Program-made: the position numbers and the translations under genes
The notes under the pieces: model-generated
Told to the model about the DNA's origin: nothing
Databases searched by the model: none
Seen by the model: only the letters and a program-made list of their open reading frames with translations
In this document: positions 5,242-58,454 of the stretch, piece after piece
Numbering within the stretch: position 1 is the first letter of the stretch
Layout: each line of letters starts with the position of its first letter
Origin: an uncultured Candidatus Saccharibacteria bacterium
GTDB taxonomy: Bacteria; Patescibacteriota; Minisyncoccia; Phycocordibacterales; UBA12088
Length of the DNA: 64,000 nucleotides
Direction of reading: 5' to 3'
Assembly: GCA_964409035.1 (NCBI GenBank)
Contig: CAYPBQ010000001.1
Span: 28,024-92,023, forward strand

Positions 5242-6351
5242 TTATGATTTCCAAAACTTTTTAGTAAAGCGCCAGCCGTATTTAGCCGCAACAAGAAGGA
5301 CAAAAAAGTACAAACAAAACACCACACCATAGGCAAGTACTGTTAATAATCCAAGAGTTGCCTTTTGTAGTGAGTGGCTTATCTCACTTACAAATTGTTC
5401 AAATGAACCTCTCCATGCATCAGTAAGGCGCTCAGTGTCAATGTATGGTCGCTCATATACCGACACAGTAAAGAAGGTGTATTCAATTCTATCTAGTTCT
5501 CGTATCTTTGCTCGCTCGAGTCTATCAATTTCACCTTCTATGATTAACTTTTCGTTTGTAAGTCTTTCTATGAGGCGTATTTTGCTATCAATGATGATTG
5601 CAAGACTGTCTGGATCGTTTGCCTTTGTGGCAATTGACTGTATTTCATCATATGAAGATAGCGCACCCGTGAGCGTGTCATCAATAACATCCAATTTGTT
5701 GGTGAGCGTTGCGATTGCGTCGGTATAATCTTTTACCTGCTCTTCAATGGTATAAGTAGACTCAGTTACATCCTTTGGATCGTAAGTATCTAGTACGGCT
5801 TTTATTTCTAGCGCCTTACTCTTTTCTACCTTAAATCGGTAGTCACATCCCCTATCAAACTCATTACTATTTTCAAAAATAACCTGTGTATCGCTCTTTA
5901 GTGCATACACTCCTTTGCATATAGAAGCAGCTGATGATGGCGTGTACGAATAGAAGAAGTCTTGCACCTCAAATGATTCTGCCATAGCGCCAACAGAACC
6001 TCCGTATGGTGGTACTGGCGAAATAACCTCTGCTGCTCCCATGGCATTTCTTGTCGAAAATGTTACATCGCCATATTGAGAAGTATTCACTGGATTTCCT
6101 GATCCCATCCACATGGGGGATTCGCTCTCGCTACCATAGCCAATATTTTTATAAGCAAACATGTCATCGCTCGATGCAAACGGCATTGAGACTGTCGAGG
6201 CTGAAAAAGATTTAAGAGACGCAAGTACGAGCGATAGTATAAATATACTCACAATTATAAATACCACCCCAAGACTAACCACCTTAAGTACACCAATTGG
6301 TGTCTTTATCGCATTTTTTAGTAATTGCATATTTTTTAATTGTAGCACCAC
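5242..6351 (-). CDS. DUF4349-like membrane protein (N- and C-terminal TM, central coiled coil)
   Basis: 369 aa. TM helices at both ends and a coiled-coil middle (LDVIDDTL...IDRLERAKIRELDRIE). Confidence 0.5.
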   Translation of the reverse strand: MVLQLKNMQLLKNAIKTPIGVLKVVSLGVVFIIVSIFILSLVLASLKSFSASTVSMPFASSDDMFAYKNIGYGSESESPMWMGSGNPVNTSQYGDVTFSTRNAMGAAEVISPVPPYGGSVGAMAESFEVQDFFYSYTPSSAASICKGVYALKSDTQVIFENSNEFDRGCDYRFKVEKSKALEIKAVLDTYDPKDVTESTYTIEEQVKDYTDAIATLTNKLDVIDDTLTGALSSYDEIQSIATKANDPDSLAIIIDSKIRLIERLTNEKLIIEGEIDRLERAKIRELDRIEYTFFTVSVYERPYIDTERLTDAWRGSFEQFVSEISHSLQKATLGLLTVLAYGVVFCLYFFVLLVAAKYGWRFTKKFWKS

Positions 6352-6388
6352 TACCTGATTGTGGTATCCACTTACTACACATAAGTTA

Positions 6389-6417
6389 TTGACAAAGTTG
6401 TTAAAGCGTTCTATTAT
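6389..6417 (+). promoter_or_regulatory. sigma70-like promoter for the helicase gene (TTGACA-17-TATTAT), implying a ~110-nt 5' UTR
   Basis: ttgaca at 6389-6394, a 17-nt spacer, then tattat. Confidence 0.45.
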
Positions 6418-6533
6418 ATATACAAGCTTTTGACTTTACGTGTGGGGCTCTCTAGCTTAAGGCATTGGTTCTATACCTCGCCTACTTATAACCTGCACAG
6501 CCCTAACACAACCCCTTATGGGGACAACTCATC

Positions 6534-7823
6534 ATGTATTCATCATCATCTAGTAGTAACAGAGGTGGCAAGCCTCGAAGTAACGCCCATACATCACACC
6601 GAAGATCTCCTCATAGTGGAGGCTCTCCATATCGTGGTGGTAGCTCATCACACTCATCACGCCCATCACGGGGACGTGGTGGTAATCGTGGAGGTGGGAG
6701 AAAAATGCCTACCTTTGACCCAACACGCTTTATCAATACAAACCCTGCAACTGTTGAAGAGGTTGTGTACGCGCACGCGCACACCTTCAGCACATTTGGT
6801 CTTGATACTCGCCTATCCAAAATAATTGAGGCAAGCGGTATTACAATCCCTACGCCGATTCAGGATCAAATAATTCCACATATCATAAAGGGGCATGATG
6901 TGGTTGGTATTGCTGAGACCGGAACGGGTAAGACTGCCGCATTTCTTGTACCTCTTATTGAGCGGACTATAAAAAAGGAAATCAGACAAACACTCATCCT
7001 AGCACCTACGCGTGAGCTTGCGGTGCAAATTGAGACCGAGCTTCGTACCCTATCTAAAGGACTTAATGTGTATTCAACCATTGTAGTAGGCGGCATGAGT
7101 ATTGGTCCACAGATACGCTCACTGCGTGGTATCAATCATTTTATTATTGGTACACCAGGGCGAGTACTTGACCTTATTGAAAGAGGAAACATTCAACCTC
7201 GGCACATGTCTGCGGTAGTGCTTGATGAGGCTGACCGCATGCTCGACATGGGCTTTATCAATGACATGAGAAAAATAATCTCTGCAATGCCAAAGGAGCG
7301 ACAGACACTATTTTTCTCAGCTACTATGTCTGATAAAACAGACTCACTTGTCAGAGAGTTCCTACACAAGCCAATCACTGTCTCAGTTAAGAAGCAGGAT
7401 GTCATTAGCACGATTGAGCAAACCATTGTTAAGTACGAGGCACATAGTAAATTTGATACACTAAGAGCACTTTTTGCTGACCCGTCATTTTCTCGAGTAA
7501 TCATCTTTGGTTCTATGAAGCACAGCGTGGAGGCACTTTCCAAGCAGCTTACCGAGGTGGGTGTTCCTTCGGAGTCTATCCACGGCAACAAAAATCACAC
7601 TCAGCGACAGCGAGCGCTATCAAGTTTTAAAAACGGCGTGGTAAAGGTATTGGTAGCTACTGATGTTGCCGCGCGTGGTATACACGTTAATGATGTATCA
7701 CACGTAATCAACTATGATCTACCACAGACATTTGAAGACTATGTGCACCGCATAGGTCGCACCGGTAGAGGCAAAAAACGAGGTAAGGCAATATCATTTG
7801 TACCATTTACACATCGCTATTAG
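6534..7823 (+). CDS. DEAD-box ATP-dependent RNA helicase with an N-terminal Ser/Arg/Gly-rich tail
   Basis: AETGTGKT, PTRELA, DEAD, SAT and HRIGRTGRG motifs. The true start may be the internal Met (MPTFDP, ~6705). Confidence 0.85.
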   Translation: MYSSSSSSNRGGKPRSNAHTSHRRSPHSGGSPYRGGSSSHSSRPSRGRGGNRGGGRKMPTFDPTRFINTNPATVEEVVYAHAHTFSTFGLDTRLSKIIEASGITIPTPIQDQIIPHIIKGHDVVGIAETGTGKTAAFLVPLIERTIKKEIRQTLILAPTRELAVQIETELRTLSKGLNVYSTIVVGGMSIGPQIRSLRGINHFIIGTPGRVLDLIERGNIQPRHMSAVVLDEADRMLDMGFINDMRKIISAMPKERQTLFFSATMSDKTDSLVREFLHKPITVSVKKQDVISTIEQTIVKYEAHSKFDTLRALFADPSFSRVIIFGSMKHSVEALSKQLTEVGVPSESIHGNKNHTQRQRALSSFKNGVVKVLVATDVAARGIHVNDVSHVINYDLPQTFEDYVHRIGRTGRGKKRGKAISFVPFTHRY

Positions 7824-7834
7824 CACCACGTACA

Positions 7835-7869
7835 AAAAGCCCCTAGTCACAGAGACTCGGGGCTTTTTG
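7835..7869. terminator. bidirectional intrinsic terminator between the convergent helicase and typA genes
   Basis: aaaagcccc-loop-ggggctttt, flanked by an A-run and a T-run. Confidence 0.7.
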
Positions 7870-7893
7870 TATATATTTACCTTCAACTCTATA

Positions 7894-9693
7894 CTAACTT
7901 TTGGATTTATTTTTTGATCGTTCGCTTTCTTTCAAGAATCTTTTTCGTAGGCGTACTGACTTTGGCGTTACCTCAAGAAGTTCATCATCTGCCATTATTT
8001 CAAGGCCAATTTCAATAGTAAGAGTAAGGGGCGGCACAAGATCAAGCGCTTCATCAGAACCTGATGCGCGCACGTTGGTAAGTTGCTTGCCCTTAGTTGG
8101 ATTTACTGCCATCTCTTCACCTTTTGAGGTATTTCCGATTACCATACCCTCATACACCTCCGTAGCAGGGCCGATATAAAGCGTACCTCTGTCTTGCAAA
8201 TTCCAGAGTGAAAATCCAAGCGCCTTGCCGGTTGCCATAGAGATCATTGAACCAACAAATCGTTTCTTCACTTCTCCCGCGTATGGCTTAAACCCAATAA
8301 ATCGAGAACACAAAATACCCTCACCCTTAGTATCAACAATAAACTGGTTTCTATATCCAAGAATACCTCGTGTTGGACCTTCAAAAATAAGGCGCACTGT
8401 ATTGCCCTCAGGGATCATGTTTTGCATGATAAAGAGCCGTTGAGAGAGCTTTTCGATAATCGCACCTTGAAAGGCAACTGGTGTATCAACAATTACTTCT
8501 TCAAATGGCTCCTTCTTTCCATCGGCATCTTCATGGAAGATTACCTGTGGTTGTGACACCGCAAGCTCATACCCTTCACGGCGCATGTTCTCAAGCAGAA
8601 TAGAGATGTGCATTTCTCCACGCCCGTATACCTTAAAGAAGTTACCATCAGAAAAATCAACTTGTAGTCCTACGTTTATTTCAAGCTCACGCTCAAGCCG
8701 AGCCTTTATCTCTCTACTCGTAACAAATTTTCCTTCCTTTCCTGCAAATGGCGATGCATTAGGCATAAACTCAAGCGCGATGGTAGGTTCATCAATCGCA
8801 ATAGCTGGGAGTGGCTCTGCTCGCTCGTCTGTGGTGAGCGTGTCGCCAATGTTGATATCAGGGAATCCTGCAATAAGAACAATATCGCCCGCATATGCCT
8901 CGGTTACTACCTCTTTAGAAAGACCAACAAATGTAGAAAGCTTGATAACCTTTCCACGCCGAGGCGCGCTACCTTGTTGAAGTAAAAAGAGGTTAGCACC
9001 ATCCTTAATACATCCCTCGTACACGCGAGCAATCGCAAGTCTGCCAGTAAAGTTATCGTACCCAAGGTTAAACACCTGCGCGCGAAGCACATCACCCTCA
9101 GTGTATGCTTTTGCTGGTGGTACCTCTTCAAGAATGGTATCAAGGAGTGGTGTAAGGTCAGTTGCAGTATCTTCAAGCTTTCGCTTTGCGACACCTTCCC
9201 TTCCTATTGCGTATACCACCTTAAAATTTGCCTGTTCATCACTTGCGCCAAGCTCAAGAAATAGTTCAAGCACTTGCTCCTCGCATCGGTGAGGGTCTGC
9301 GGCTGGCTTATCAATTTTATTGATAACCACATTAGGCTTGAGACCAAGCTCAAGAGATTTTTTAAGTACAAAGCGAGTTTGTGGCATTGGACCTTCTTGT
9401 GCATCTACCACAAGAAGCACAGAGTCTATCGAGCGGAGTACTCGCTCTACTTCTGAACCAAAGTCTGCGTGACCAGGAGTGTCTACGATATTAAGCTTGG
9501 TACCCTTATATGAAAGAGAGGCGTTTTTAGCATAGATAGTAATACCACGCTCTTGCTCAAGCGCATTAGAATCCATGGTGATGGTGTCGTCTGTCACCGC
9601 CCCCGTCTGGCGCATAAGCGCATCGGTGAGTGTGGTTTTGCCATGGTCTACGTGTGCGATTATGGCTATGTTACGTGTTTCTGTGTGTTGCAT
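7894..9693 (-). CDS. typA: translational GTPase TypA/BipA
   Basis: [38 protein letters not shown]-like domains. The track ORF begins at a TTG 33 nt upstream; the ATG at 9693 is preferred. Confidence 0.9.
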
Positions 9694-24519: not shown

Positions 24520-26961
24520 TTATATGGTTATCGTCTGTCCTCTACGAACCTCTCCTGCAATCAATTTATCAGCAACTTTTTGCTCTATTAATTCTTGTAT
24601 TGCTCTATTCATTGGGCGGGCGCCAAATTGCGGATCGTACCCTTCTTTTACTATCGTCTCAAGCATTGCATCTGATACTTCAAGATTGACCCCTTGTTCA
24701 CGCAATCGCTTTTTTAGCTTAGTCAGCATGAGTCCGGCAATTTTTCTAATATCTTCAATAGAAAGCGGATGAAAAACAATCACTCCATCAAAGCGGTTAA
24801 GTAACTCGGGTTTAAATATTCCTCTCTTAATAATTTCATTGGTGAGGTCATCTGCATGTAAAGAAGGGTCAGTGTTACTTTTTGCATACTCCCAAATTTT
24901 ATCGCTTGCAGCGTTTGAGGTTGCTATCACAATAACGTTACGCGCATTCACCCGTTTGCCATGCGCGTCAGAAAATTGCCCTTCGTCAAGAATCTGAAGA
25001 AACAAATCATGGACATCTGGATTTGTTTTTTCAAACTCATCAAGAAGAAGTATGCCGTACTGCCCTTCTCTAAGCGCGCTTGATAGTGTCCCTGCCTTTC
25101 CAGATTGAAATGAGCCTATAAGTCTATCAAGCGCATCTGCGCCTCTATACTCACTCATGTCAAAACGCATGATTTTTTCTTTGTTTCCAAAAAATACTTC
25201 CGCAAGTGCTTTTGTTGTTTCTGTCTTTCCTACACCTGTAGGTCCTAAGAACAAGAATGATCCCATGGGGCGCTCCATATTGCGCACCCCTGCTCGTGAC
25301 CTACGCATAGCCTTTGCTATTGCTGATACCGCTTCCACTTGCCCGATAATCTTTTCATGCAAGCGCTTTTCCAAATCAATAAGCATTTTTTGCTCATCCT
25401 TTGTTGGAGCGCTAAGCGGTATACCTGTTTTACCCTCAACAAGAGTAAGTACATCTTTTTGCAGAATATACTCCTGTTTATTTGCGACAGCAGATGCTAC
25501 TAGCTCGCGCATAAGGTCAAATCCCTTGTCTGGCATTACCCCGTTTGCAAAGTATCTATCCGCGCTTCTGATGATTTCTAAAATCGCCTGGTAGGTGAAA
25601 AACACATTATGCTTTTCTTCAAGTATGAGTGATTCCCGCCCCAAGACTCGCACCAACATATATTCATCAAGATCCTCAACATATACCGTATCGAAAAACT
25701 GCATGATAGTGCCATGCTTTTCAAGTGTGTGGTGATACGCCTGAGGATCATCAGTAAAAATTATTTGTAAATCTTTTGATGAAAAGTATGGAGTCATCAA
25801 ATCAATAACATCAACTCCAATAGCTTTTGTTGCCTCCATAAACGCGGTGACATTTTGTATCACCAAGATGATGTTACCAGCGTAGGCAGACTGATCGAGT
25901 ATTTTTATAAATTCATGTTCAAATGCGCCAGACGCTTTGCCTACCTCTACCATAGCGGTAGGGTTAACAATAAACACTGTCTTATCCATGAGTGGTGGTA
26001 ACGCGCTGCCCTCTCTGATGCGACGAGCAATTCTTGCGATAATTTCCATCTCTCCAATACCTGGCTCTCCAACTAAAAGTACATTTGACTGCCTATTTCG
26101 TGCCAAAATAGTCTCAAGCTTATCTACCTCTTCACGTTCACGCCATGCAAATTGTGATGATTCATACACCACATCTGTCACAATATCGTGACCATACTTG
26201 TCCAAAAAGTATGTCTGTCCGTAGCCAAGTGATCTACCAATAGCAGGAAATCTTCCTAGATTATCTCTGCCCCACCACCGCTGTCGCAATCTGCGCTCTC
26301 TAAAAATTTCTTCTACCCATAATGATGTTCCCAAAAAATCACTTTCTTGGACTTCTTCTTTAAACAAAAATTCTTGCAGTGAGTTGTCTGCGCGATAAAT
26401 CGCTGCTGCATATTTTGAGATGGTTACAGGACCATCACCATAAAATGTTAGTGCTCCACCACTTAGATGCTCTCTGTGTCCTTGCAAAAATTGCTCTCGC
26501 GCCTCATCACGTACTCCTAATCTAGTAAGAATAACACCGCCAAAGTATGAGGTGAGAAAGCCTTCAGTAACATCATAAGGATTGGTTGAGTAGGTAATAG
26601 AACCCACTTCAAAGCTAACCGAAGTTGACGCATGACTTTCAAGCTCTTCAAGAACAAAATCAAGTCCACGATAGTAGTATGATCTCCTAAACCACTCCAA
26701 AAGGGCAAAGATCATCCATACTGAACACAACACAAGAGAGCTACCTACCCACAATGTCTCAAAGCTAGTTATAAACGGTGATACGGAAGGAAAGACAATT
26801 GCAATACCGCCAAGAAGTACTGTCACAAAAAAGGCTACCGCTATAACTCTAGATATCCTTCTGCGTACTGGCGTATCCAACGTAGCCTCAAGCACAAAGA
26901 TAGGTGCAAAGTGTTTGTATACGTATTCTTGTAGATCAGCAAAGCTCATATTACATAACAC
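24520..26961 (-). CDS. Clp/Hsp100-family AAA+ ATPase with an N-terminal TM anchor and a degenerate first nucleotide-binding domain
   Basis: Two N-terminal TM helices. D1 Walker A reads GEPGIGEME instead of GEPGVGKT, and D1 Walker B is not DE. D2 is intact: [18 protein letters not shown], sensor-2 GARP. Confidence 0.8.
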   Translation of the reverse strand: MLCNMSFADLQEYVYKHFAPIFVLEATLDTPVRRRISRVIAVAFFVTVLLGGIAIVFPSVSPFITSFETLWVGSSLVLCSVWMIFALLEWFRRSYYYRGLDFVLEELESHASTSVSFEVGSITYSTNPYDVTEGFLTSYFGGVILTRLGVRDEAREQFLQGHREHLSGGALTFYGDGPVTISKYAAAIYRADNSLQEFLFKEEVQESDFLGTSLWVEEIFRERRLRQRWWGRDNLGRFPAIGRSLGYGQTYFLDKYGHDIVTDVVYESSQFAWREREEVDKLETILARNRQSNVLLVGEPGIGEMEIIARIARRIREGSALPPLMDKTVFIVNPTAMVEVGKASGAFEHEFIKILDQSAYAGNIILVIQNVTAFMEATKAIGVDVIDLMTPYFSSKDLQIIFTDDPQAYHHTLEKHGTIMQFFDTVYVEDLDEYMLVRVLGRESLILEEKHNVFFTYQAILEIIRSADRYFANGVMPDKGFDLMRELVASAVANKQEYILQKDVLTLVEGKTGIPLSAPTKDEQKMLIDLEKRLHEKIIGQVEAVSAIAKAMRRSRAGVRNMERPMGSFLFLGPTGVGKTETTKALAEVFFGNKEKIMRFDMSEYRGADALDRLIGSFQSGKAGTLSSALREGQYGILLLDEFEKTNPDVHDLFLQILDEGQFSDAHGKRVNARNVIVIATSNAASDKIWEYAKSNTDPSLHADDLTNEIIKRGIFKPELLNRFDGVIVFHPLSIEDIRKIAGLMLTKLKKRLREQGVNLEVSDAMLETIVKEGYDPQFGARPMNRAIQELIEQKVADKLIAGEVRRGQTITI

Positions 26962-37793: not shown

Positions 37794-39317
37794 CTATTGT
37801 GAACATGAAGCGGTTCTCTGTTGATTACAGTAAATAGAAAAGTGCGATTTTCCTGAGCCGAGCGTGGGTACAACTCTCACATTATCTGCAGAAATATTAG
37901 TACCTGCAAGTCTTGAAGCGGCTAGCAAATTATCTTTTTCATTTTGAGTGTTAACTTCCCACTCCGCCTTCATTCCAGCACTATTTGCTGCTGTTACCAC
38001 CTTATTAATATTTTGAAGCTCTGATTGTGTATAGTAGGAATCATTGTAGGACGGATTAGTAAAATCAAAATCCGCACACGTGCCATTACTATGACATGCG
38101 TTGGCATGATTTACTGTGTCGTATGCTGATGTCATAACTAATGGCTCTGAGCCCGCAGTATCTAGATTGGTTTTGAGAGTTGATAGCTTTGTATTGTATC
38201 CAGGATCAACATAACAGCTTCCACCAGTATATGAGCATCCGCTATTTGGGTATGTAGTAGACGGCTCAAGACCAGCAGGAGGAGTATTTGCTGGTGGAGT
38301 AGGATTATTTACAACCTCACCATTAATCTTATCAATTTCAGCTCGAAGCGAATCAATTTCTCCTCTAATTTCAGTACACCGCGCATACAGCGCTTCGCCA
38401 GCCACCACATTGTTACACCCTCTCAGTGCATACTCTCTTCCAAGCTCAGCTACTCGCTCAGTGTTTGCTTTTAATAACTCATCTCTTACTGCAGTATCAT
38501 ACGATCTAGCAGCTGCATTTCTTTCTTGTTGTAGTTGATCAATTTTGTTCTGAACTTCTGCACGGCAAATATTTCTATCTGCGAGGTTTTCTGATTGACT
38601 ATTACATGCAGCGAGTTGCCTATTGAGCTCTGAAATTTGTCTATCTAGTGATGCAATCTGATTTGCGAGCTCACCTGCTCTACCTCCATTCACTACCTGA
38701 CCAGCATTAGGATTTGGAAGGAGACTGCTATTTCTTCCATCATTTTGGCAAGCAATCGCGCTCACGTCAGCAAGCGATCTTCCTGCAAGGGTGTTGAGGA
38801 CGGTATTTATTACGATCCATGCACCAAGCACCGCAACAAAGCCAAAGAGTACATTCCAAAATATTCCTTTTGCTTTAGAAATGTTTCCTGGGTTAGTGCT
38901 GGAGGTAAGGTACAAAAATCCCGCATAGGTGAACATAATGCTAGCAAGAAGTACCGATACAAGAATCAAAAAATTAATTATCCTCTGTATAGTGCGGAAA
39001 AATTCGCATGGACCACAGCTACTTGTATCGCCGACATGATACCCTCTATTACATGTTACCAATCCATTTGTATTTTCATTAGCACCAAACTGTGTGTTCA
39101 AAATAATACTTCCATCTACCTGTGCTAGTTGCGAAGAATCCTCATCTGAAGACTCAAATACACTAATTACAGAATGAAGAGAGGTTGAAAAATCAAATGA
39201 AGGCAACGTAATATTTCCACCTTCACTCTTTTCAATCACCACGCCCGCCCCTGTGAGCAGGAAAAATTGCATCACAACTGCGGCAAAAATTATTTTTACT
39301 GATGGTGATTGCTTCAT
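37794..39317 (-). CDS. secreted or membrane protein: Cys-rich N-domain + TrbC/VirB2-like two-helix module + coiled coil + C-terminal putative Zn-peptidase (M15-like, H-x6-D) domain
   Basis: Signal/TM at the N-terminus. CNRGYHVGDTSSCGPCEF. Two-helix module IMFTYAGFLYL..NISKAKGIFWNVLFGFVAVLGAWIVINTV, alignable to the 54.4-57.1 kb pilin-like genes. Coiled coil at 200-330. C-terminal motif CHSNGTCADFD. Confidence 0.55.
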   Translation of the reverse strand: MKQSPSVKIIFAAVVMQFFLLTGAGVVIEKSEGGNITLPSFDFSTSLHSVISVFESSDEDSSQLAQVDGSIILNTQFGANENTNGLVTCNRGYHVGDTSSCGPCEFFRTIQRIINFLILVSVLLASIMFTYAGFLYLTSSTNPGNISKAKGIFWNVLFGFVAVLGAWIVINTVLNTLAGRSLADVSAIACQNDGRNSSLLPNPNAGQVVNGGRAGELANQIASLDRQISELNRQLAACNSQSENLADRNICRAEVQNKIDQLQQERNAAARSYDTAVRDELLKANTERVAELGREYALRGCNNVVAGEALYARCTEIRGEIDSLRAEIDKINGEVVNNPTPPANTPPAGLEPSTTYPNSGCSYTGGSCYVDPGYNTKLSTLKTNLDTAGSEPLVMTSAYDTVNHANACHSNGTCADFDFTNPSYNDSYYTQSELQNINKVVTAANSAGMKAEWEVNTQNEKDNLLAASRLAGTNISADNVRVVPTLGSGKSHFSIYCNQQRTASCSQ

Positions 39318-39330
39318 AGGTGTGTATTGA

Positions 39331-40848
39331 TTAGTAGTTTAAGTCAACATTTCCATCAGGAAGCTCTGCTGGGTTTACGGAATTAGGAATATTTGTACCA
39401 GAAGTGGTGGTGTTTGCTGGCTTTTGATTAGTATAGTACTGATTATAATAATTAACCCTAGCCACATAATTACGCGTCTCTTCGAGACCTCCTGGATTAA
39501 TTGAGCATTCATATGCGCGTGCACCTGGACAATCTGATGAGTCTGCTAGTGCTGGCTTTTTACCCGCATCATTTAGTTGATTGCCAGCGCCAGAATTGTA
39601 TGAAGCGATTAAATCATTAGTATTGCCAGAGCGAACGTTGGGGTTGTTAAGGTTTGCATTTAATACCTGGACTCCAACACGAATATTTGTCTGTGGATTA
39701 CGTAGCTCTTGTTCTATTTGCGCATCTGTTAGACCAGGAAAATACTGCCGTGCGGTACTAGGTAGTACCTGCATAAGACCAACAGCACCTGCTGGGCTTT
39801 TTGCATTAGGATTTCCACCGCTTTCAGCACTCATAATAGCTCTCACCAACTCTGGAGAAATGGGTACTCCTTGGCGAGCTAATTCTGCCTCAATAATTGC
39901 AGCGTATGAATTTGTATTGTTAGCAACTAGTGCTGCTCCCTCGGGGGTTATGTTTGCCTGTGGAATAAATACATTTGGATTTGTGCTTATAGGAGCTGTG
40001 CCTGGGATAGTGCCACCTGGAGGTGTGGTCGTGGGTGGTGCCCCCGCAAGCTGTGCTTGTAGTGCTGCTTTTTCCCGCTCTAGTTCCGTAATTCTCCTAT
40101 CTACTGTAGAGCAGAGATTTTGATCCGCAGGAGCGATGTCACCCGTGTCTGCTCCTCCTGCTCCACCAGCTAAGCAGTTCAACTTCTCCGCCCGTAGTAT
40201 TGCTATTGATTGATCTATATTTGCAATTTGTGCGCGTAGCACTGCAGCAGTATCAACAACGGCAGTTCCTGCACTTGGATTTGGAAGGAGGCTACTATTT
40301 CTTCCATCATTCTGGCAAGCAATCGCGCTCACATCCGTAAGTGATCGGTTATACAAAATATTTAGTACGGTGTTTACCACAATCCACGCTCCCAATACTG
40401 CAATAAAGCCAAATAGCACATTCCAAAATATTCCTTTTGCTTTAGAAATGTTTCCTGAGTTAGTACTGGAGGTGAGGTACAACATACCTGCGTATGCAAA
40501 CATGATGGTTGCAACAATTACCGCAATGACAAATGCAAAGTTTAACACCCGTTGAATAGTTGCAAGAAATTCACACGGTCCACAGCTACTTGTATCTCCA
40601 ACATGATACCCTCTATTACATGTTACCAATCCAAGAGTGTTTGTATCGGTGCCAAACTGTGGGTCTAAAATAATTTCTCCGCTCACCTGTGAAAGGTGAT
40701 CAGAGGGAGAAATGGTAGATATAACTGATGATACAGAGTTCGACAACGAAGGAAGTCCCCATGCGCCAAGCACAAGTACGAGCTGCGCCACCACCCCTAT
40801 TACCGCTACCCAAGAAGTCTTGTTCACACAATAAGAATAGCACGTCAA
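39331..40848 (-). CDS. paralog of the previous gene: Cys-rich N-domain + TrbC/VirB2-like module + coiled coil + C-terminal lytic transglycosylase (SLT) domain
   Basis: The same N-terminal 190 aa at ~70% identity. The C-terminus has IMSAESGGNPNAKSPAGAVGLMQVLPSTA (SLT catalytic Glu-Ser and the AGAxGLMQ motif). Confidence 0.7.
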   Translation of the reverse strand: MTCYSYCVNKTSWVAVIGVVAQLVLVLGAWGLPSLSNSVSSVISTISPSDHLSQVSGEIILDPQFGTDTNTLGLVTCNRGYHVGDTSSCGPCEFLATIQRVLNFAFVIAVIVATIMFAYAGMLYLTSSTNSGNISKAKGIFWNVLFGFIAVLGAWIVVNTVLNILYNRSLTDVSAIACQNDGRNSSLLPNPSAGTAVVDTAAVLRAQIANIDQSIAILRAEKLNCLAGGAGGADTGDIAPADQNLCSTVDRRITELEREKAALQAQLAGAPPTTTPPGGTIPGTAPISTNPNVFIPQANITPEGAALVANNTNSYAAIIEAELARQGVPISPELVRAIMSAESGGNPNAKSPAGAVGLMQVLPSTARQYFPGLTDAQIEQELRNPQTNIRVGVQVLNANLNNPNVRSGNTNDLIASYNSGAGNQLNDAGKKPALADSSDCPGARAYECSINPGGLEETRNYVARVNYYNQYYTNQKPANTTTSGTNIPNSVNPAELPDGNVDLNY

Positions 40849-40920
40849 AAATAGAAAAAAGGTAAAAAACCTACATTCTGTGGATTTCAGACAAGGTGGT
40901 TATAAAATCAAAATACTCTT

Positions 40921-40935
40921 GTGGTGCGCCGGGAG
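40921..40935. repeat. 15-bp exact direct repeat of the tRNA-Tyr 3' terminus (cctcccggcgcacca, shown as the reverse complement), 228 bp from the tRNA
   Basis: tggtgcgccgggagg occurs at 40921-40935 and again at 41163-41177, where it forms the tRNA-Tyr 3' end. Confidence 0.6.
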
Positions 40936-40996
40936 GTCGGTCACGAGTTACTAAGTAGTTTAATCACTACGTTCAAAACTACTAAGTACTCTCGAA
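40936..40996 (-). repeat. copy 3 (inverted) of the ~60-bp palindromic repeat family
   Basis: Its reverse complement, ggttcgagagtacttagtagtttt...aaactacttagtaactcgtgaccga, aligns to the 36042 and 48927 copies. Confidence 0.55.
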
Positions 40997-41132
40997 CCCG
41001 CTTTTGCTAAGCTCGTATAAACTCGCTAAGCACGCTGGTCGCGCCTCGCCACCTCGCTCTGCTCGGTATGGCTCCGGCGGTTCGAATCCCACGCAAAGCA
41101 CGAAGGTGCTTTGCTTCCACGGCGCTCCTAAT

Positions 41133-41160
41133 CAAAATTCCCTCTGTTGAGGGAATTTTT
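41133..41160 (+). terminator. intrinsic terminator aaattccctc-tgtt-gagggaattttt
   Basis: 10-bp stem plus T-run. It closes a ~250-nt + strand segment that carries a T-arm-like motif (ggcGGTTCGAATCCca at 41053-41068) and a 9-bp hairpin (gcaaagcac-gaag-gtgctttgc). Confidence 0.55.
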
Positions 41161-41162
41161 CA

Positions 41163-41248
41163 TGGTGCGCCGGGAGGGATTCGAACCCCCGTAGCCCGAA
41201 GGCGCTTGGTTTACAGCCAAGTGCGATTGACCACTCCGCCACCGACGC
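41163..41248 (-). tRNA. tRNA-Tyr (anticodon GTA), type II, CCA encoded
   Basis: Hand-folded: acceptor GCGTCGG/CCGGCGC, D-stem GCGG/TCGC, anticodon stem CTTGG/CCAAG with loop CTGTAAA, long variable arm, T-arm GGGGG-TTCGAAT-CCCTC. Confidence 0.8.
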
Positions 41249-54443: not shown

Positions 54444-54737
54444 TTATAGTGGTATTTCGCTTGGAAAATCAGACCCACTGTCTACCCTAAAGGTATCAAG
54501 TCCTACTCTGATAAGGGCAAATGATGACACCATCACAAAAAGCCCTACCAAACCCCACATCATATGTTGCTTTCCAGTCTCCCTCCCTGTTGAGCTATCT
54601 GCATTTCTGATGAACTCAATCCCACCCCATACAAATAGAAACAAGGCAATAACAGTAAGCGTTCCTATTATGGGGTTTATGATAAATCGATTGATATTAT
54701 CAATAAGCTGTATAAGTTCGAAAGGAAGTGGCTCCAT
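54444..54737 (-). CDS. TrbC/VirB2-like pilin-family small protein (divergent copy, no obvious signal peptide)
   Basis: Two hydrophobic helices separated by a short polar loop (..ALFLFVWGGIEFIRNADSSTGRETGKQHMMWGLVGLFVMVSSFAL..). Confidence 0.55.
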   Translation of the reverse strand: MEPLPFELIQLIDNINRFIINPIIGTLTVIALFLFVWGGIEFIRNADSSTGRETGKQHMMWGLVGLFVMVSSFALIRVGLDTFRVDSGSDFPSEIPL

Positions 54738-54760
54738 TTAACAAATAACCTTAAAAAAAA

Positions 54761-55135
54761 TTAAAATGTGAAGAGATTATTTCCCGTTACATATGGATTA
54801 GGCGCTCTGTCCTCAGCAGATACCCCAAACACATCTCTCAAAAACGCAACCAATCCCCAGATAGATGCAGCAACGAAGAGTGCAATAACGCCCCAGATCA
54901 TGAGGTTCTTTCCTTTCTCTTTATCCTCAGCATCACCAAGCATGTACTTTGCAAGACCCCAGAAGAAGAAGAGGAGAATTGCAGCAAAGGCAACGGGTAT
55001 AAGTACACCAACAACATTACCGATCTCCTGGACGAAGGCGACAATATTATCTGTTTGTGGCTGTGCAAACGCGACAAAAGGTACTAGTAAAAAAATTCCA
55101 AGTAATGAGGCGTTGATTTTAGTAATTTTTTTCAT
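54761..55135 (-). CDS. TrbC/VirB2-like pilin-family protein (signal peptide + two-helix core)
   Basis: Signal peptide, then IPVAFAAILLFFFWGLAKYMLGDAEDKEKGKNLMIWGVIALFVAASIWGLVAFLRDVFGV. Confidence 0.65.
   Translation of the reverse strand: MKKITKINASLLGIFLLVPFVAFAQPQTDNIVAFVQEIGNVVGVLIPVAFAAILLFFFWGLAKYMLGDAEDKEKGKNLMIWGVIALFVAASIWGLVAFLRDVFGVSAEDRAPNPYVTGNNLFTF
54823..54994. repeat. 172-bp block identical to 55229-55400 (a recent duplication or gene conversion between adjacent pilin-like genes)
   Basis: Direct comparison of the two stretches in the sequence. Confidence 0.75.
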
Positions 55136-55170
55136 TGAATGTTATTATTTCCTATAATTTAGTTGCAATT

Positions 55171-55545
55171 TTATTGAATACCTCTTTGCGGCACAGCCAC
55201 AGGGTTGTTAGTTTGATCAAGGTCATTAACCCCAAACACATCTCTCAAAAACGCAACCAATCCCCAGATAGATGCAGCAACGAAGAGTGCAATAACGCCC
55301 CAGATCATGAGGTTCTTTCCTTTCTCTTTATCCTCAGCATCACCAAGCATGTACTTTGCAAGACCCCAGAAGAAGAAGAGGAGAATTGCAGCAAAGGCAA
55401 CAGGTATAAGAATACTTATTACATTTGAAATACCTGTGACAAGATTATCTATATTAGTGAAAGTCACACCGGTACCCTGCCCTAGAGTGGTCTGTGGTAA
55501 TAAAAATAAACTTCCGATTAAGAGTGTTATTTTGCTTTTTATCAT
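55171..55545 (-). CDS. TrbC/VirB2-like pilin-family protein; its core is identical to the previous gene
   Basis: The 172-bp block 55229-55400 is identical to 54823-54994. Confidence 0.65.
   Translation of the reverse strand: MIKSKITLLIGSLFLLPQTTLGQGTGVTFTNIDNLVTGISNVISILIPVAFAAILLFFFWGLAKYMLGDAEDKEKGKNLMIWGVIALFVAASIWGLVAFLRDVFGVNDLDQTNNPVAVPQRGIQ
55229..55400. repeat. second copy of the 172-bp identical block
   Basis: As above. A third, ~85-90% similar copy lies at ~55640-55810. Confidence 0.75.
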
Positions 55546-55576
55546 AAAATGAGGTTATTTAGATAATTATCATCGA

Positions 55577-56002
55577 CTAAAGCGAAAGTACTTCTGGAGT
55601 AACTGTCGGTGAATTTTCGTCAGTTTCAGGATCGACACCAAATACTTCTCCCAAAAACGCAACCAAGCCCCAGATAGATGCTGCAACGAAGAGTGCGATT
55701 ACACCCCAGATCATGAGGTTCTTGCCCTTTTCCTTATCCTCAGCATCGCCAAACATGTACTTTGCAAGACCCCAGAAGAAAAAGAGAAGAATAAGAGCAA
55801 AGGCAATTGGTATCAAAATCCCAACAATCTCACTTACTGCAGATGCAATATCTACTAGACCATTTAAATCTTGCGCTCCCGCTACCAGTGGGAACATTAA
55901 AACAAGAGTTGCTACAGACCCAACAAATCTACTTTTTTTCTTTGTCATATAAAAGCTTGTAATGTTAATGCGCCGAAGCGCTACAGTAATATCTTTATCC
56001 AC
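55577..56002 (-). CDS. TrbC/VirB2-like pilin-family protein
   Basis: Core IPIAFALILLFFFWGLAKYMFGDAEDKEKGKNLMIWGVIALFVAASIWGLVAFLGEVFGV. Confidence 0.65.
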   Translation of the reverse strand: MDKDITVALRRINITSFYMTKKKSRFVGSVATLVLMFPLVAGAQDLNGLVDIASAVSEIVGILIPIAFALILLFFFWGLAKYMFGDAEDKEKGKNLMIWGVIALFVAASIWGLVAFLGEVFGVDPETDENSPTVTPEVLSL

Positions 56003-56066
56003 ATGATACCTTTACCTAGGGCATATGCAATAAATATGTGTGGATAACAATATTTGATTTACCAAG

Positions 56067-56441
56067 TTATATAGAGCTTCCAAAGCTCGGTATGGTAGAT
56101 CGCTCAAGGTTCCATCTATCATAATTTCCATCAACACCTATCACCTCTCTTAGGTATGCCGAGATGCCCCACACCGATGAGGCAACAAATAACGCTATTG
56201 TTCCCCACATTAATAACTCCTTTCCTTCTGTTTTTCCTTCCTCGCCAACAGAAAGAACAAATTTAGCGATACCCCACAGAAACACAAGCAGAATAATCGC
56301 AAACGCAACAGGAATCATGACCGCGATTACTCTTGAAAAGGCAATAAGTATAGATTGCACTGTTTGTGCATGGGTAACCAACGGCACCATGGGTAATAGT
56401 AATGTGCTATAGCCCAGCAATGATGAGAAAATTCTTTTCAT
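56067..56441 (-). CDS. TrbC/VirB2-like pilin-family protein
   Basis: Start taken at the internal ATG (MKRIFSSLLG...signal). Core IPVAFAIILLVFLWGIAKFVLSVGEEGKTEGKELLMWGTIALFVASSVWGISAYL. Confidence 0.6.
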   Translation of the reverse strand: MKRIFSSLLGYSTLLLPMVPLVTHAQTVQSILIAFSRVIAVMIPVAFAIILLVFLWGIAKFVLSVGEEGKTEGKELLMWGTIALFVASSVWGISAYLREVIGVDGNYDRWNLERSTIPSFGSSI

Positions 56442-56443
56442 AA

Positions 56444-56698
56444 TTACCCAAAAAAAGTTTGTCGTAAGATTCGAACCAGCCCCCACACCGTGCCGAGGAT
56501 AAACATAATGATCACCCCCCAAAAGATGCGGTACTTCCCTTCTGAGCGCGCCTTACTATCACCCGCAGAAAATATAAACACCGCCACTCCCCAAAAAAAG
56601 AGTAGTAGTGCCGCGCTAAACGCAAGGGTAATACCAAGCCCCGCAATATCGGAAATGATACACAGTATTTCTCGTAGATCTCCTCCTGAACATCCCAT
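56444..56698 (-). CDS. TrbC/VirB2-like pilin-family small protein (84 aa, no signal peptide)
   Basis: ..LAFSAALLLFFWGVAVFIFSAGDSKARSEGKYRIFWGVIIMFILGTVWGLVRIL. Confidence 0.55.
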   Translation of the reverse strand: MGCSGGDLREILCIISDIAGLGITLAFSAALLLFFWGVAVFIFSAGDSKARSEGKYRIFWGVIIMFILGTVWGLVRILRQTFFG

Positions 56699-56717
56699 AA
56701 TATATTGATTACACGCC

Positions 56718-57098
56718 CTATATCGTACCGGGCGCTATGTTGTTAACGGTCGCTCGTATAGCGGTAGATAATGCATATGAACCGAGGATAAGTAGCGCAC
56801 CAATAATGGTATAGATAAGATACTCCTTTGCCTGAGAAATTTTAGCAGGGTTGCCTTGTGCGGTAAGAAACAGAAAGCCGGTGTAGACAATAAAGAGCAC
56901 CGTAATAGGAAACATAATTGCCATAAAGGCAGAAAGTACAACCCTAAGAAGCCCTGTCATGTCAGTTATCCCTCTTTCCTCTAAGGGATTTCTGAGCCCT
57001 GGCCCAGCAAGAGCGGGATCAACAGCAGAAAAAAGTAGCGCGAGGAAAAACACAAACACCAGTACTGAGGAAAGAATATACTGTCGTTGTGTGTTCAT
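56718..57098 (-). CDS. TrbC/VirB2-like pilin-family protein
   Basis: Signal/TM, then ..MAIMFPITVLFIVYTGFLFLTAQGNPAKISQAKEYLIYTIIGALLILGSYAL.. Confidence 0.55.
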   Translation of the reverse strand: MNTQRQYILSSVLVFVFFLALLFSAVDPALAGPGLRNPLEERGITDMTGLLRVVLSAFMAIMFPITVLFIVYTGFLFLTAQGNPAKISQAKEYLIYTIIGALLILGSYALSTAIRATVNNIAPGTI

Positions 57099-57119: not shown

Positions 57120-58454
57120 CTAGAAGGTTTTCTTCAATGACCCTTCTGCAAGCCCCATTGCACTACTTATATCTTTTCTTCCGCTTGATATGTCGTCAAT
57201 CATGGTGCTGAGTATTCTATCAGTGGTACGTGGGTCAGAATCAAGCCATGTAAAGGTATTAAGCGCGAGATTGTACGCAACCGCACCAAATGGATCAGTT
57301 GGCGGTGAGGCGAGCAATGTGCGGTGAAGTGGCGGCAACCCCGATGATGCAGACCAACTCTTGAGTGCAATCGCATCAGTAAGCCCACGAGCAGCAGCGT
57401 ATGCTCTTGTGGCATTTGGTGATGATTTTGGTATTGCAAAGCCCGTAATGGTGCCATAAGTAACACTGCGAGTTGCTCCACGTATGCGTGGCATAGGGCC
57501 GATATCAAAGTTAAGATTAGGATTTGCTTCGCGCAGTGCTTTGTACTCACTTGCAAATCCAAAATATACCCCAAGGTCACCCGCCAAAAATGCTTGCCTC
57601 GATTCAGGAAGCGCTCTATTCCACGTGTACACACTTCGGACTGGATCAGAAAATTCTGTATAAAAACGTACCGCAGCAGGACCTCCGCTAAGCGCTACAT
57701 CTCCCGCAGAAGAACTGGGCTGCGAAAGATTTACCTCAACAGAGCCATCGGGTAACCAACTAACCACTGGTATCTTTAGTTGAAGTAGTAGTGTTGATAG
57801 TACTGCCTTTGCATTGGTCACATTATCATACCCCCCCAGTGAGGTAGCAGCTTGGAGTACATTTTGATTATTATCAACAATCGTGAGCTTCTCTACCAAT
57901 CCCACAAACTCATCCCAATACTGTGGTGGGTTAGCTAGTCCGTTTGCAAAAAATAAATCCCTATTCCAGTACATAACAAGAGGATCAACAGAAAAAGGTA
58001 TTGCGAGTGTCCCCTCAGGGCGCAAGAATACTTCTGCCCCTTCTATGTACTCTGTTCTAAATGTTCGCTCTGGTAATGTCTCATAAGAGACAGGGCGAAT
58101 TTTATCTGCCTGTTTGAGGAGTGCTCCCTGGTCAATAAGAAATAGATCGGGTCCGCGCCCTGCCGCTATCGCATCTACCACTTCGGCATAATACACATCA
58201 CTTTCAATTTGCTTGTACGTTACACCCTTTAGATACTCTCTATCAGAGCTGAGGCTGCTGAGGTAATCCCCCATCTCAGCCTCAGAAAGTGTCCCCCATA
58301 TTGCAATATCACCGACCGCCTCTGTTTCCGCCCCTCTAAAAAGAGCAATTGCAGCAGTACCCGCAACGATAAGTATCCCAAAGATAATGAGAACGACGAT
58401 ACGAAATACTTTTGGTTGATCTTCAAACATATTACTTTTTGAACAATAATCCAA
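57120..58454 (-). CDS. ABC-transporter extracellular solute-binding protein (family-1-like) with an N-terminal membrane anchor
   Basis: N-terminal TM. Binding-protein-like motifs GPDLFLIDQG, MYWNRDLF, and a Trp-rich C-terminus. Confidence 0.55.
   Translation of the reverse strand: MDYCSKSNMFEDQPKVFRIVVLIIFGILIVAGTAAIALFRGAETEAVGDIAIWGTLSEAEMGDYLSSLSSDREYLKGVTYKQIESDVYYAEVVDAIAAGRGPDLFLIDQGALLKQADKIRPVSYETLPERTFRTEYIEGAEVFLRPEGTLAIPFSVDPLVMYWNRDLFFANGLANPPQYWDEFVGLVEKLTIVDNNQNVLQAATSLGGYDNVTNAKAVLSTLLLQLKIPVVSWLPDGSVEVNLSQPSSSAGDVALSGGPAAVRFYTEFSDPVRSVYTWNRALPESRQAFLAGDLGVYFGFASEYKALREANPNLNFDIGPMPRIRGATRSVTYGTITGFAIPKSSPNATRAYAAARGLTDAIALKSWSASSGLPPLHRTLLASPPTDPFGAVAYNLALNTFTWLDSDPRTTDRILSTMIDDISSGRKDISSAMGLAEGSLKKTF

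Follow-up and report, generated by a model that had tools for sequence, protein, structure and literature searches.

A tandem pair of pilin-module proteins with an SLT and a putative LAS-type peptidase domain in a Candidatus Saccharibacteria bacterium

Results

The gene pair and its shared N-terminal region

We have analysed a stretch of 64,000 nucleotides (hereafter the window; contig CAYPBQ010000001.1 of assembly GCA_964409035.1, positions 28,024 to 92,023 of the forward strand) from an uncultured Candidatus Saccharibacteria bacterium, in which two tandem genes, here called A and B, encode proteins that carry a pilin-like module followed by a C-terminal domain, of SLT type in B and of putative LAS type in A (Table 1). 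The genes follow one another in the same orientation on the minus strand, B upstream of A, with a spacer of 13 nt, and are probably co-transcribed; promoter and terminator scans gave a signal no better than shuffled sequence. Three start codons can be considered for B: the TTG at 40848, which gives the longest open reading frame (ORF), a GTG at 40827, which agrees with the ortholog in the related locus L001 (8314-9810), and a GTG at 40794, which is the NCBI call (P0003, 487 aa). The NCBI protein P0001 is identical to A, and the orthologs of A are P0002 and L001 9824-11347. A tRNA-Tyr gene flanks the pair upstream of B and a tRNA-Trp gene downstream of A.

Table 1. Coordinates of the genes and domains described, numbered from the first nucleotide of the window
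Feature	Position	Strand	Remarks
Gene A: pilin module, ~120-aa helical stalk, putative LAS domain	37794..39317	minus	507-aa ORF, ATG
A C-terminal LAS-type putative zinc peptidase domain	37797..38270	minus	aa 350-507
A helical, coiled-coil-like stalk with paired cysteines	38313..38681	minus	aa ~213-335; composition scan
A Cys motif (C89, C101, C104) and two-helix pilin module	38763..39053	minus	aa ~89-185
Gene B: pilin module, helical and Pro/Thr linker, SLT domain	39331..40848	minus	505-aa ORF, TTG
B SLT/lysozyme-like domain	39547..39912	minus	aa 313-434; E-S, GLMQ and SYNSG motifs
B helical linker, then Pro/Thr-rich spacer	40024..40266	minus	aa ~195-275; composition scan
B Cys motif (C77, C89, C92) and two-helix pilin module, basic loop NISKAKG	40324..40620	minus	aa ~77-175
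Seven tandem small VirB2-like pilin genes	54444..57098	minus	PF18895 matches, positional classification

A previous description made by a model from the nucleotide letters (the sequence-only reading) had proposed two tandem paralogs of ~505 aa that share a Cys-rich N-domain and differ only in their C-terminal enzyme. Both ORFs and their paralogy are confirmed, with 61% identity across the N-terminal ~210 aa (A61-266 against B49-260, BLASTP E = 4e-84), and the shared Cys-rich segment CNRGYHVGDTSSCGPCEF was found in A as well as in B; the other quoted motifs are also present, ESGGNPNAKSPAGAVGLMQVLPST in B and CHSNGTCADFD in A. The C-termini are indeed unrelated, but the linkers differ too. Similarly, the long coiled coil attributed to both proteins holds for A, whose stalk gave weak matches to the coiled-coil families FlxA and ZapB and an SMC-related match (E = 2e-5), but not for B, in which a shorter helix with a weak match to the coiled-coil family ABC_tran_CTD is followed by the Pro/Thr-rich linker. 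The helical linker of B is missing from the homolog in locus L065. The cysteines, 14 in A and 8 in B, occur mostly as close pairs and never within the inter-helix loop, a pattern that fits what would be expected of an extracellular, disulfide-bonded protein.

The anchor belongs to one pilin subtype

Both modules match the Pfam family T4SS_pilin (PF18895) above its gathering cut-off of 26.6 bits, A at aa 107-172 with 30.9 bits and B at aa 97-161 with 31.2 bits. When A and B are aligned with the seven small pilins of the window, the loop SSTNPGNISKAKG is found between two hydrophobic helices, and the proposed helix-K.KG-helix likeness to the small proteins at 54.4-57.1 kb is seen column for column. 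A hydrophobic N-terminal segment, as in a leader, is present in A and B; their size, 507 and 505 aa with a C-terminal extension of ~330 aa each, is unlike that of a stand-alone pilin (~70-150 aa when mature). The TrbC family (PF04956) was reached below threshold (E ~1e-3) and solely in relatives.

Scanning genomes with the N-region shared by A and B yielded 79 loci, 53 of which hold arrays of at least four pilin genes. In all 53 arrays, the best match of the A and B modules was the first array gene (position 1). With position-specific profiles, A scored 90 bits for position 1 and 38 for the next class, and B 87 and 29; scored over the whole ORF, the corresponding values were 96 against 35 bits for A and 95 against 25 for B. 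Although the loci were recruited by patterns derived from A and B, the constant placement of the match at position 1 is an observation and not a product of that choice. In addition, the position-1 consensus includes the PCG...C cysteine motif highlighted by the sequence-only reading. The anchor of A and B is of the "leader" subtype, the one that takes position 1 in the pilin arrays of Patescibacteria; the suspected pilin-like module is one defined pilin subtype and not a generic transmembrane pair. The labels of the related loci, Patescibacteria/CPR-type (candidate phyla radiation) or unclassified bacterium in 77 of 79, agree with the CPR-type cell that had been predicted.

B carries an SLT domain

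The SLT signature noticed in B was borne out by the match of aa 329-434 to PF01464 (84.1 bits with a cut-off of 21.3, E = 6.9e-24). Further matches were obtained to PF13702 (E = 5.4e-07) and to NCBIfam lytic transglycosylase models (E ~1e-13). B reads ...MSAESGGNP...GLMQV...ASYNSGAGN, with the E-S Glu, GLMQ and (A/S)YNxG all present, which from family knowledge we take to be the motifs of SLT (PF01464, family 1), the E-S Glu being presumably catalytic.

A ends in a putative LAS-type domain

Searched as a single sequence, the C-terminal domain of A found nothing in Pfam, NCBIfam or PDB, and no M15 model even at E <= 10. Exhaustive HMMER searches nevertheless placed it in a family of at least 148 cluster representatives (50% identity, E <= 1e-3), mostly proteins of ~300 aa with the domain at the C-terminal end and, in 122 of 147 relatives, with a pilin module upstream. 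Seven residues are invariant in the family (in the numbering of A: H404, C408, H409, C414, D416, E454 and H492); H409-x6-D416 and H492 stayed invariant in 60 and in 92 aligned relatives, and H409, D416 and H492 would be the metal ligands. The family consensus is W-VTEAWPPTV-H-N-CH--GTCVDANF ... GLRAVYEV ... HFSVY. Against PDB, the family profile matched Hedgehog N-domains in 23 of 23 cases (best E = 0.0045), and the alignment with Shh/Hedgehog was centred on the zinc-site motif TEGW...H...H-x6-D. A structure model was computed with AlphaFold 2 (AF2) on a 60-sequence alignment, and the domain is assigned the Hedgehog/DD-peptidase fold with moderate fold scores; Foldseek against PDB returned no significant match. 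Because of the invariant zinc-type residues and of profile matches that are Hedgehog only, the C-terminal domain of A is best classified as a new subfamily of the LAS/Hedgehog-DD-peptidase superfamily. The M15-like H-x6-D motif previously pointed out in A was thus rightly recognised at the level of the LAS superfamily, but not at that of M15, whose models do not match.

Could this domain be non-catalytic, a Hedgehog-like binder of peptidoglycan, of a host surface molecule or of a partner protein, leaving B as the sole enzyme? Its best sequence matches are in fact Hedgehog signalling domains rather than peptidases, no E-x-x-H motif stands beside the third histidine, and the stretch TEAWPP, in which the Glu is conserved in ~97% of the family, is replaced by TSAYD in A and its ortholog P0002. 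On the other hand, none of the seven residues invariant in the family has been lost from A, so that H409, D416 and H492 stand there with their H-x6-D spacing, and the protein at the corresponding place in L065 can be recognised as a Peptidase_M15_3. We consider a purely binding role very improbable.

Genomic settings of the pilin-LAS family

Genes of the pilin-LAS family recur in three settings: 1- VirB4 clusters near dnaA, 2- between ClpB and MiaA, and 3- as first gene of a pilin array. PF18895 matched 10 of 10 tested pilin-LAS proteins, drawn from all three settings. The first has the order VirB4 - 334-aa protein - pilin-LAS - 417-aa protein - YidC - DnaA - DnaN. At least one marker of the VirB4-YidC-DnaA-DnaN cluster was found in 28 metagenome loci and VirB4, recognised by P-loop_TraG, AAA_10 and CagE_TrbE_VirB, was visible in 15; in at least 15 metagenome loci, VirB4 is followed after ~1.5 kb by the pilin-LAS gene. 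The co-occurrence with genes of a type IV secretion system (T4SS) that the sequence-only reading had wished to see checked is absent from the window itself but present at these loci of the protein family. In the array setting, represented by L096 and L128, pilin-LAS is the first array gene and comes immediately after the gene of a solute-binding protein (SBP).

Two conserved proteins always flank pilin-LAS in the VirB4-dnaA clusters (L086, L091, L097, L106, L114, L138 and others; example coordinates L114:6482-7486 and L138:8326-9579). The one directly upstream (~334 aa) is secreted and beta-rich, and the one directly downstream (~417 aa) is anchored by a transmembrane segment and possibly a beta-propeller; neither has a Pfam match, and both are unlike glycosidases. 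Upstream of VirB4, these clusters also code for conserved proteins, one of ~219 and one of ~658 aa. All four are candidates for uncharacterised T4SS components.

The window belongs to the ClpB-MiaA setting, whose gene order IF-2 ... ClpB - B - A - MiaA is the same in L001 (87% identity). In the more distant L065 (35% identity), IF-2, aminotransferase and ClpB are followed by a pilin-SLT protein (398 aa) and directly then by a pilin-Peptidase_M15_3 protein (340 aa; PF08291, 25.7 bits against a cut-off of 23.2). In L080, from a third lineage, two tandem fusion proteins of the leader pilin type, one of 579 aa (6150-7889) and another of 480 aa (8001-9443), lie between ClpB and MiaA, and the payloads of this pair have no match in Pfam or PDB. 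A module with cysteines (…R-x-L-x-x-AG-[IV]…C…C…LD-x-EVI…) occurs twice in the 579-aa protein. The end of protein P0004, SHGSGHKLDI…NHWD, resembles an M15 motif. With hhalign, the family of the A C-domain reached a probability of 3% against the L065 M15_3 domain and of 0.9% against the P0004 C-terminus, which gives the latter resemblance no support, and homology to either is not claimed beyond motif and position.

In 11 metagenome loci a single pilin-LAS gene is convergent with MiaA, several of them showing the full IF-2-aminotransferase-trypsin-ClpB synteny. Pilin-SLT fusions were rare in a word-limited protein search, which recovered B together with its ortholog in L001, the L065 protein and P0154. 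The SLT partner and the tandem pair are lineage-specific and the pilin-LAS gene alone is widespread. In the lineage of the window, it appears that an ancestral pilin-LAS gene at ClpB-MiaA gained a stalk and was then duplicated, one copy taking the SLT payload.

Apart from the small-pilin array, all that was examined in the window is of the housekeeping kind (GyrA, SBP, methyltransferase, Tmk, ThyX-like, IF-2, aminotransferase, ClpB, MiaA and ParB, with RelA/SpoT, TopA, SerRS, BipA and others), which brings up the possibility that the pair are housekeeping autolysins acting in growth or turnover of the own wall or in separation of daughter cells, independently of any T4SS and with the hairpin as a mere anchor. 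The chromosomal locus among core genes (ClpB, MiaA, tRNAs) is kept across distant lineages, no T4SS gene is present in the window and A and B are its only SLT or LAS genes to have been seen, all of which would suit such a role. Yet the anchor is that of one specific pilin subtype and not a generic one, and the same fusion is found inside VirB4 clusters (15 loci, 28 with at least one marker) and heading pilin arrays. Moreover, the pilin arrays of these lineages likewise sit in core-gene contexts, so that such a context is no argument against a role in the apparatus. We regard the autolysin explanation as improbable.

The small-pilin array of the window

The array in the window had been counted as six small pilin genes; it holds seven, the additional ORF being located at 56444..56698 on the minus strand (84 aa, two helices, without a signal peptide). 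Among the first six, five match PF18895 above the gathering score and one is just below it. The array is composed of position-2, middle and last subtypes and begins with a position-2 type (s6, 91 bits); it has no position-1 member, and A and B are the only position-1 modules found in the window. It lies directly downstream of the SBP gene (57120..58454), in the order MurLigase-S1-GyrA-MTase-SBP-array-IF-2-aminotransferase that is conserved in the related loci (MTase, methyltransferase). In 51 of 53 related loci (L003-L079, L081), the SBP gene (SBP_bac_8/SBP_bac_1, ~430 aa) ends a few nt before the first pilin gene. This operon-like arrangement without VirB4 nearby hints that the array is linked to nutrient uptake.

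The 84-aa ORF ends just ahead of the next pilin gene (56067..56522, minus strand), whose true start is probably the ATG at 56441. At the same position, other arrays have a single protein of ~220-270 aa with two fused PF18895 modules (L050:10769-11572, L045:10667-11377), and for this reason the two ORFs of the window may be the split version of a double pilin. Three adjacent pilin genes (54822-55018, 55229-55425 and 55635-55831) share a 197-nt core with 96% and 85% DNA identity, far above the maximum identity of 54% reported for such arrays (PMC12102498). The cores are spaced by ~407 nt, and the N-terminal mature segments and C-terminal tails differ, resulting in a cassette-like pattern of a constant hairpin with variable exposed ends.

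In arrays, the position-1 subtype also bears FN3-like N-terminal domains, and its C-terminal payloads vary between SLT, the LAS family, M15_3 and unmatched domains. Perhaps, then, leader pilin modules display SLT and LAS enzymes on a pilus or on the cell surface. Being the first to be incorporated, they would come to lie at the tip of a VirB2-like filament, or else decorate it, and the stalked enzymes would cut through the peptidoglycan of the bacterial host on which the epibiont feeds. The combination of a constant delivery module and exchanged extracellular payloads is reminiscent of polymorphic effector systems, the ~120-aa stalk of A could span ~15 nm or more, the array of the window lacks a position-1 pilin of its own, and reviews have proposed that the lytic transglycosylases of Patescibacteria impair the host envelope (PMC11665869). 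However, polymerisation is unsupported for any PF18895 protein, large C-terminal domains are perhaps incompatible with packing in a filament, most family members (~300 aa) are without a stalk, and a position beside VirB4 is equally expected of an assembly factor. In our estimate such a display is unlikely. A bolder form of it takes the position-1 pilin as the general payload-carrying tip subunit of a VirB2-like filament, placed at the tip because it is incorporated first, in this lineage with SLT and LAS on coiled-coil stalks as a "drill head" against the host wall; this we consider rather improbable. If true, it would represent a previously unknown delivery of enzymes by a T4SS-type pilus and a direct mechanism for epibiotic feeding.

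Repeats at tRNA-Tyr

The last 15 nt of tRNA-Tyr (41163..41248), CCTCCCGGCGCACCA, together with ~14 nt downstream, are repeated 241 nt on. The repeats, at 40906-40936 and 41130-41177 on the minus strand, enclose a 13-bp hairpin, and the segment between them also has a 32-nt inverted match to the T-arm region of the tRNA; Rfam found nothing in this segment, which has the look of an att-type scar or of a very small insertion at the 3′ end of the tRNA. A mobile element was considered since the tRNA 3′ end is repeated. It was rejected because no more than ~240 bp, upstream of B, lie between the repeats and because the ClpB-pair-MiaA synteny is found in distant genomes. Elsewhere in the window, ARAGORN reported a 92-nt tRNA-Pro(UGG) at 26146..26237 (minus strand) inside the ORF of an 813-aa Clp-type ATPase (24520..26961). 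It is probably a false positive, since the Rfam tRNA model gave no report at gathering score.

Discussion

Having weighed these alternatives, we lean towards the explanation that A and B form a membrane-anchored, extracellular pair, one cutting glycan and the other peptide, that serves the patescibacterial T4SS/pilin apparatus. The relatives of one of the two genes adjoin VirB4, and for this reason A and B are probably wall-opening tools of a T4SS. Together with the PF18895 and SLT matches, this linkage supports the idea, put forward from the sequence at the outset, of a peptidoglycan-remodelling pair tied to a T4SS or pilus.

The mechanism that we propose is as follows. The VirB2-like leader-subtype pilin hairpin would hold A and B in the cytoplasmic membrane with the enzymes facing outward. 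From the N-terminus, a signal or anchor segment would be followed by the Cys-rich segment outside, helix 1, the NISKAKG loop inside, helix 2, and the stalk and enzyme outside; this orientation, with N-segment and C-terminus out and loop in, is suggested by the positive charge of the loop and by the enzyme identities. B, an SLT lytic transglycosylase, would cut the glycan strands and A, a putative zinc enzyme of LAS/Hedgehog-DD-peptidase type, the peptide stems or cross-links, and the two jointly could open the wall completely. The pilin-type anchor may direct both to the place at which pilins are handled by the T4SS of Patescibacteria, and the wall, whether the cell's own or that of a host, would then be opened solely where a pilus or channel emerges.

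Several observations weigh against this explanation. No VirB4, VirB6 or VirD4 lies within the 64-kb window, where A and B sit among housekeeping genes, and the SLT partner is absent from the 11 metagenome ClpB-MiaA loci, so the pair as such is not required. As for the anchor, a profile of 25 pilin modules searched against PDB sequences found no solved VirB2, TraA or TrbC and only generic membrane proteins (E >= 0.01), and judging by sequence PF18895 is a remote homolog of true VirB2. In addition, no pilus has yet been observed or demonstrated for any Patescibacterium (PMC12857230, review). For A, the fold scores of the C-terminal domain are a weak point, as is the loss of the conserved Glu of TEAWPPT in A and P0002.

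It is still an open question what role the essential T4SS and its VirB2-like pilin array play in Patescibacteria (PMC11665869, PMC12857230). The components themselves and the association of T4SSs with wall hydrolases are already known; what seems not to have been described so far is the fusion to one particular pilin subtype, together with the LAS subfamily that no model covers and the genomic logic of both. Our analysis defines a payload-carrying pilin subtype and a LAS-type family without a Pfam model (at least 148 clusters at 50% identity), and three recurrent genomic settings tie the pilin-LAS family to VirB4 and to pilin arrays. Since the peptidase domain has no Pfam model and is fused to a pilin module, a wall-opening function of Patescibacteria may have been overlooked. 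Two small enzyme domains and one anchor would thus offer cheap experimental handles on how ultra-small monoderm epibionts pass a pilus or channel through their own wall or that of the host.

The architecture had been presented as an unrecognised one. No pilin-hydrolase fusion is described in the literature that we searched on PF18895/T4SS_pilin, T4SS pilins, Patescibacteria/Saccharibacteria and lytic transglycosylases, but in the sequence databases the architecture is common. VirB2-like arrays of 2-11 genes have been reported in 383 assemblies, and most genomes with VirB2 have no VirB1 (Quinonero-Coronel et al. 2025, PMC12102498); the same study makes no mention of a pilin-hydrolase fusion. 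A and B resemble the PF18895 arrays, such as SEML1_0014-0019 of Southlakia (PMC12102498), in Pfam family, in the hairpin with a basic loop and in phylum. The array pilins are of ~100-150 aa and have no enzyme domain, whereas A and B are of ~505 aa, end in C-terminal hydrolase domains and are located 13-16 kb from the array of the window.

From the M15/LAS enzymes (VanX, VanY, Ply500, T5 endolysin, MepA) and the Hedgehog N-domains, the C-terminal domain of A is set apart by having no Pfam M15 match. In its family, two invariant cysteines (C408 and C414) flank the first putative ligand, and instead of the E-x-x-H of the M15/LAS enzymes a conserved Glu is found 38 residues before the last His.

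The VirB1-like hydrolases of Gram-positive T4SSs include PrgK of pCF10, TraG of pIP501, TcpG and CwlT. Like A and B as read from their sequence, these are membrane-anchored and have glycan- and peptide-cleaving domains that open a monoderm wall (general background and PMC12102498). They differ in combining both activities in one polypeptide, in using CHAP or NlpC/P60 cysteine peptidases and in having a simple N-terminal transmembrane anchor; in A and B the activities would be split over two paralogs, the peptidase would have the LAS/Hedgehog fold, and a hairpin of the pilin family serves as anchor. It is fairly probable that A and B are a functional analogue of the VirB1-like hydrolases.

The closest parallel within the phylum comes from Southlakia epibionticum, in which peptidase and lysozyme homologues beside virB4 are essential (PMC12102498). 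SEML1_0006 has two lysozyme-like domains and a Cys proteinase, SEML1_0007 has a C-terminal ECOD "Hedgehog/DD-peptidase" domain, both are beside VirB4 and essential, and neither is annotated with PF18895 (Wang et al. 2023, PMC10633639 Table S2). The Southlakia proteins are of 643 and 1113 aa, VirB4-adjacent, and carry phage-tail-lysozyme, glucosaminidase and Cys-proteinase domains, whereas A and B are fused to a pilin module, use SLT and have no VirB4 within the window. Nonetheless, both cases present a glycosidase together with a domain of the Hedgehog/DD-peptidase fold, predicted as such in A, and in Southlakia this pair is essential for epibiotic growth.

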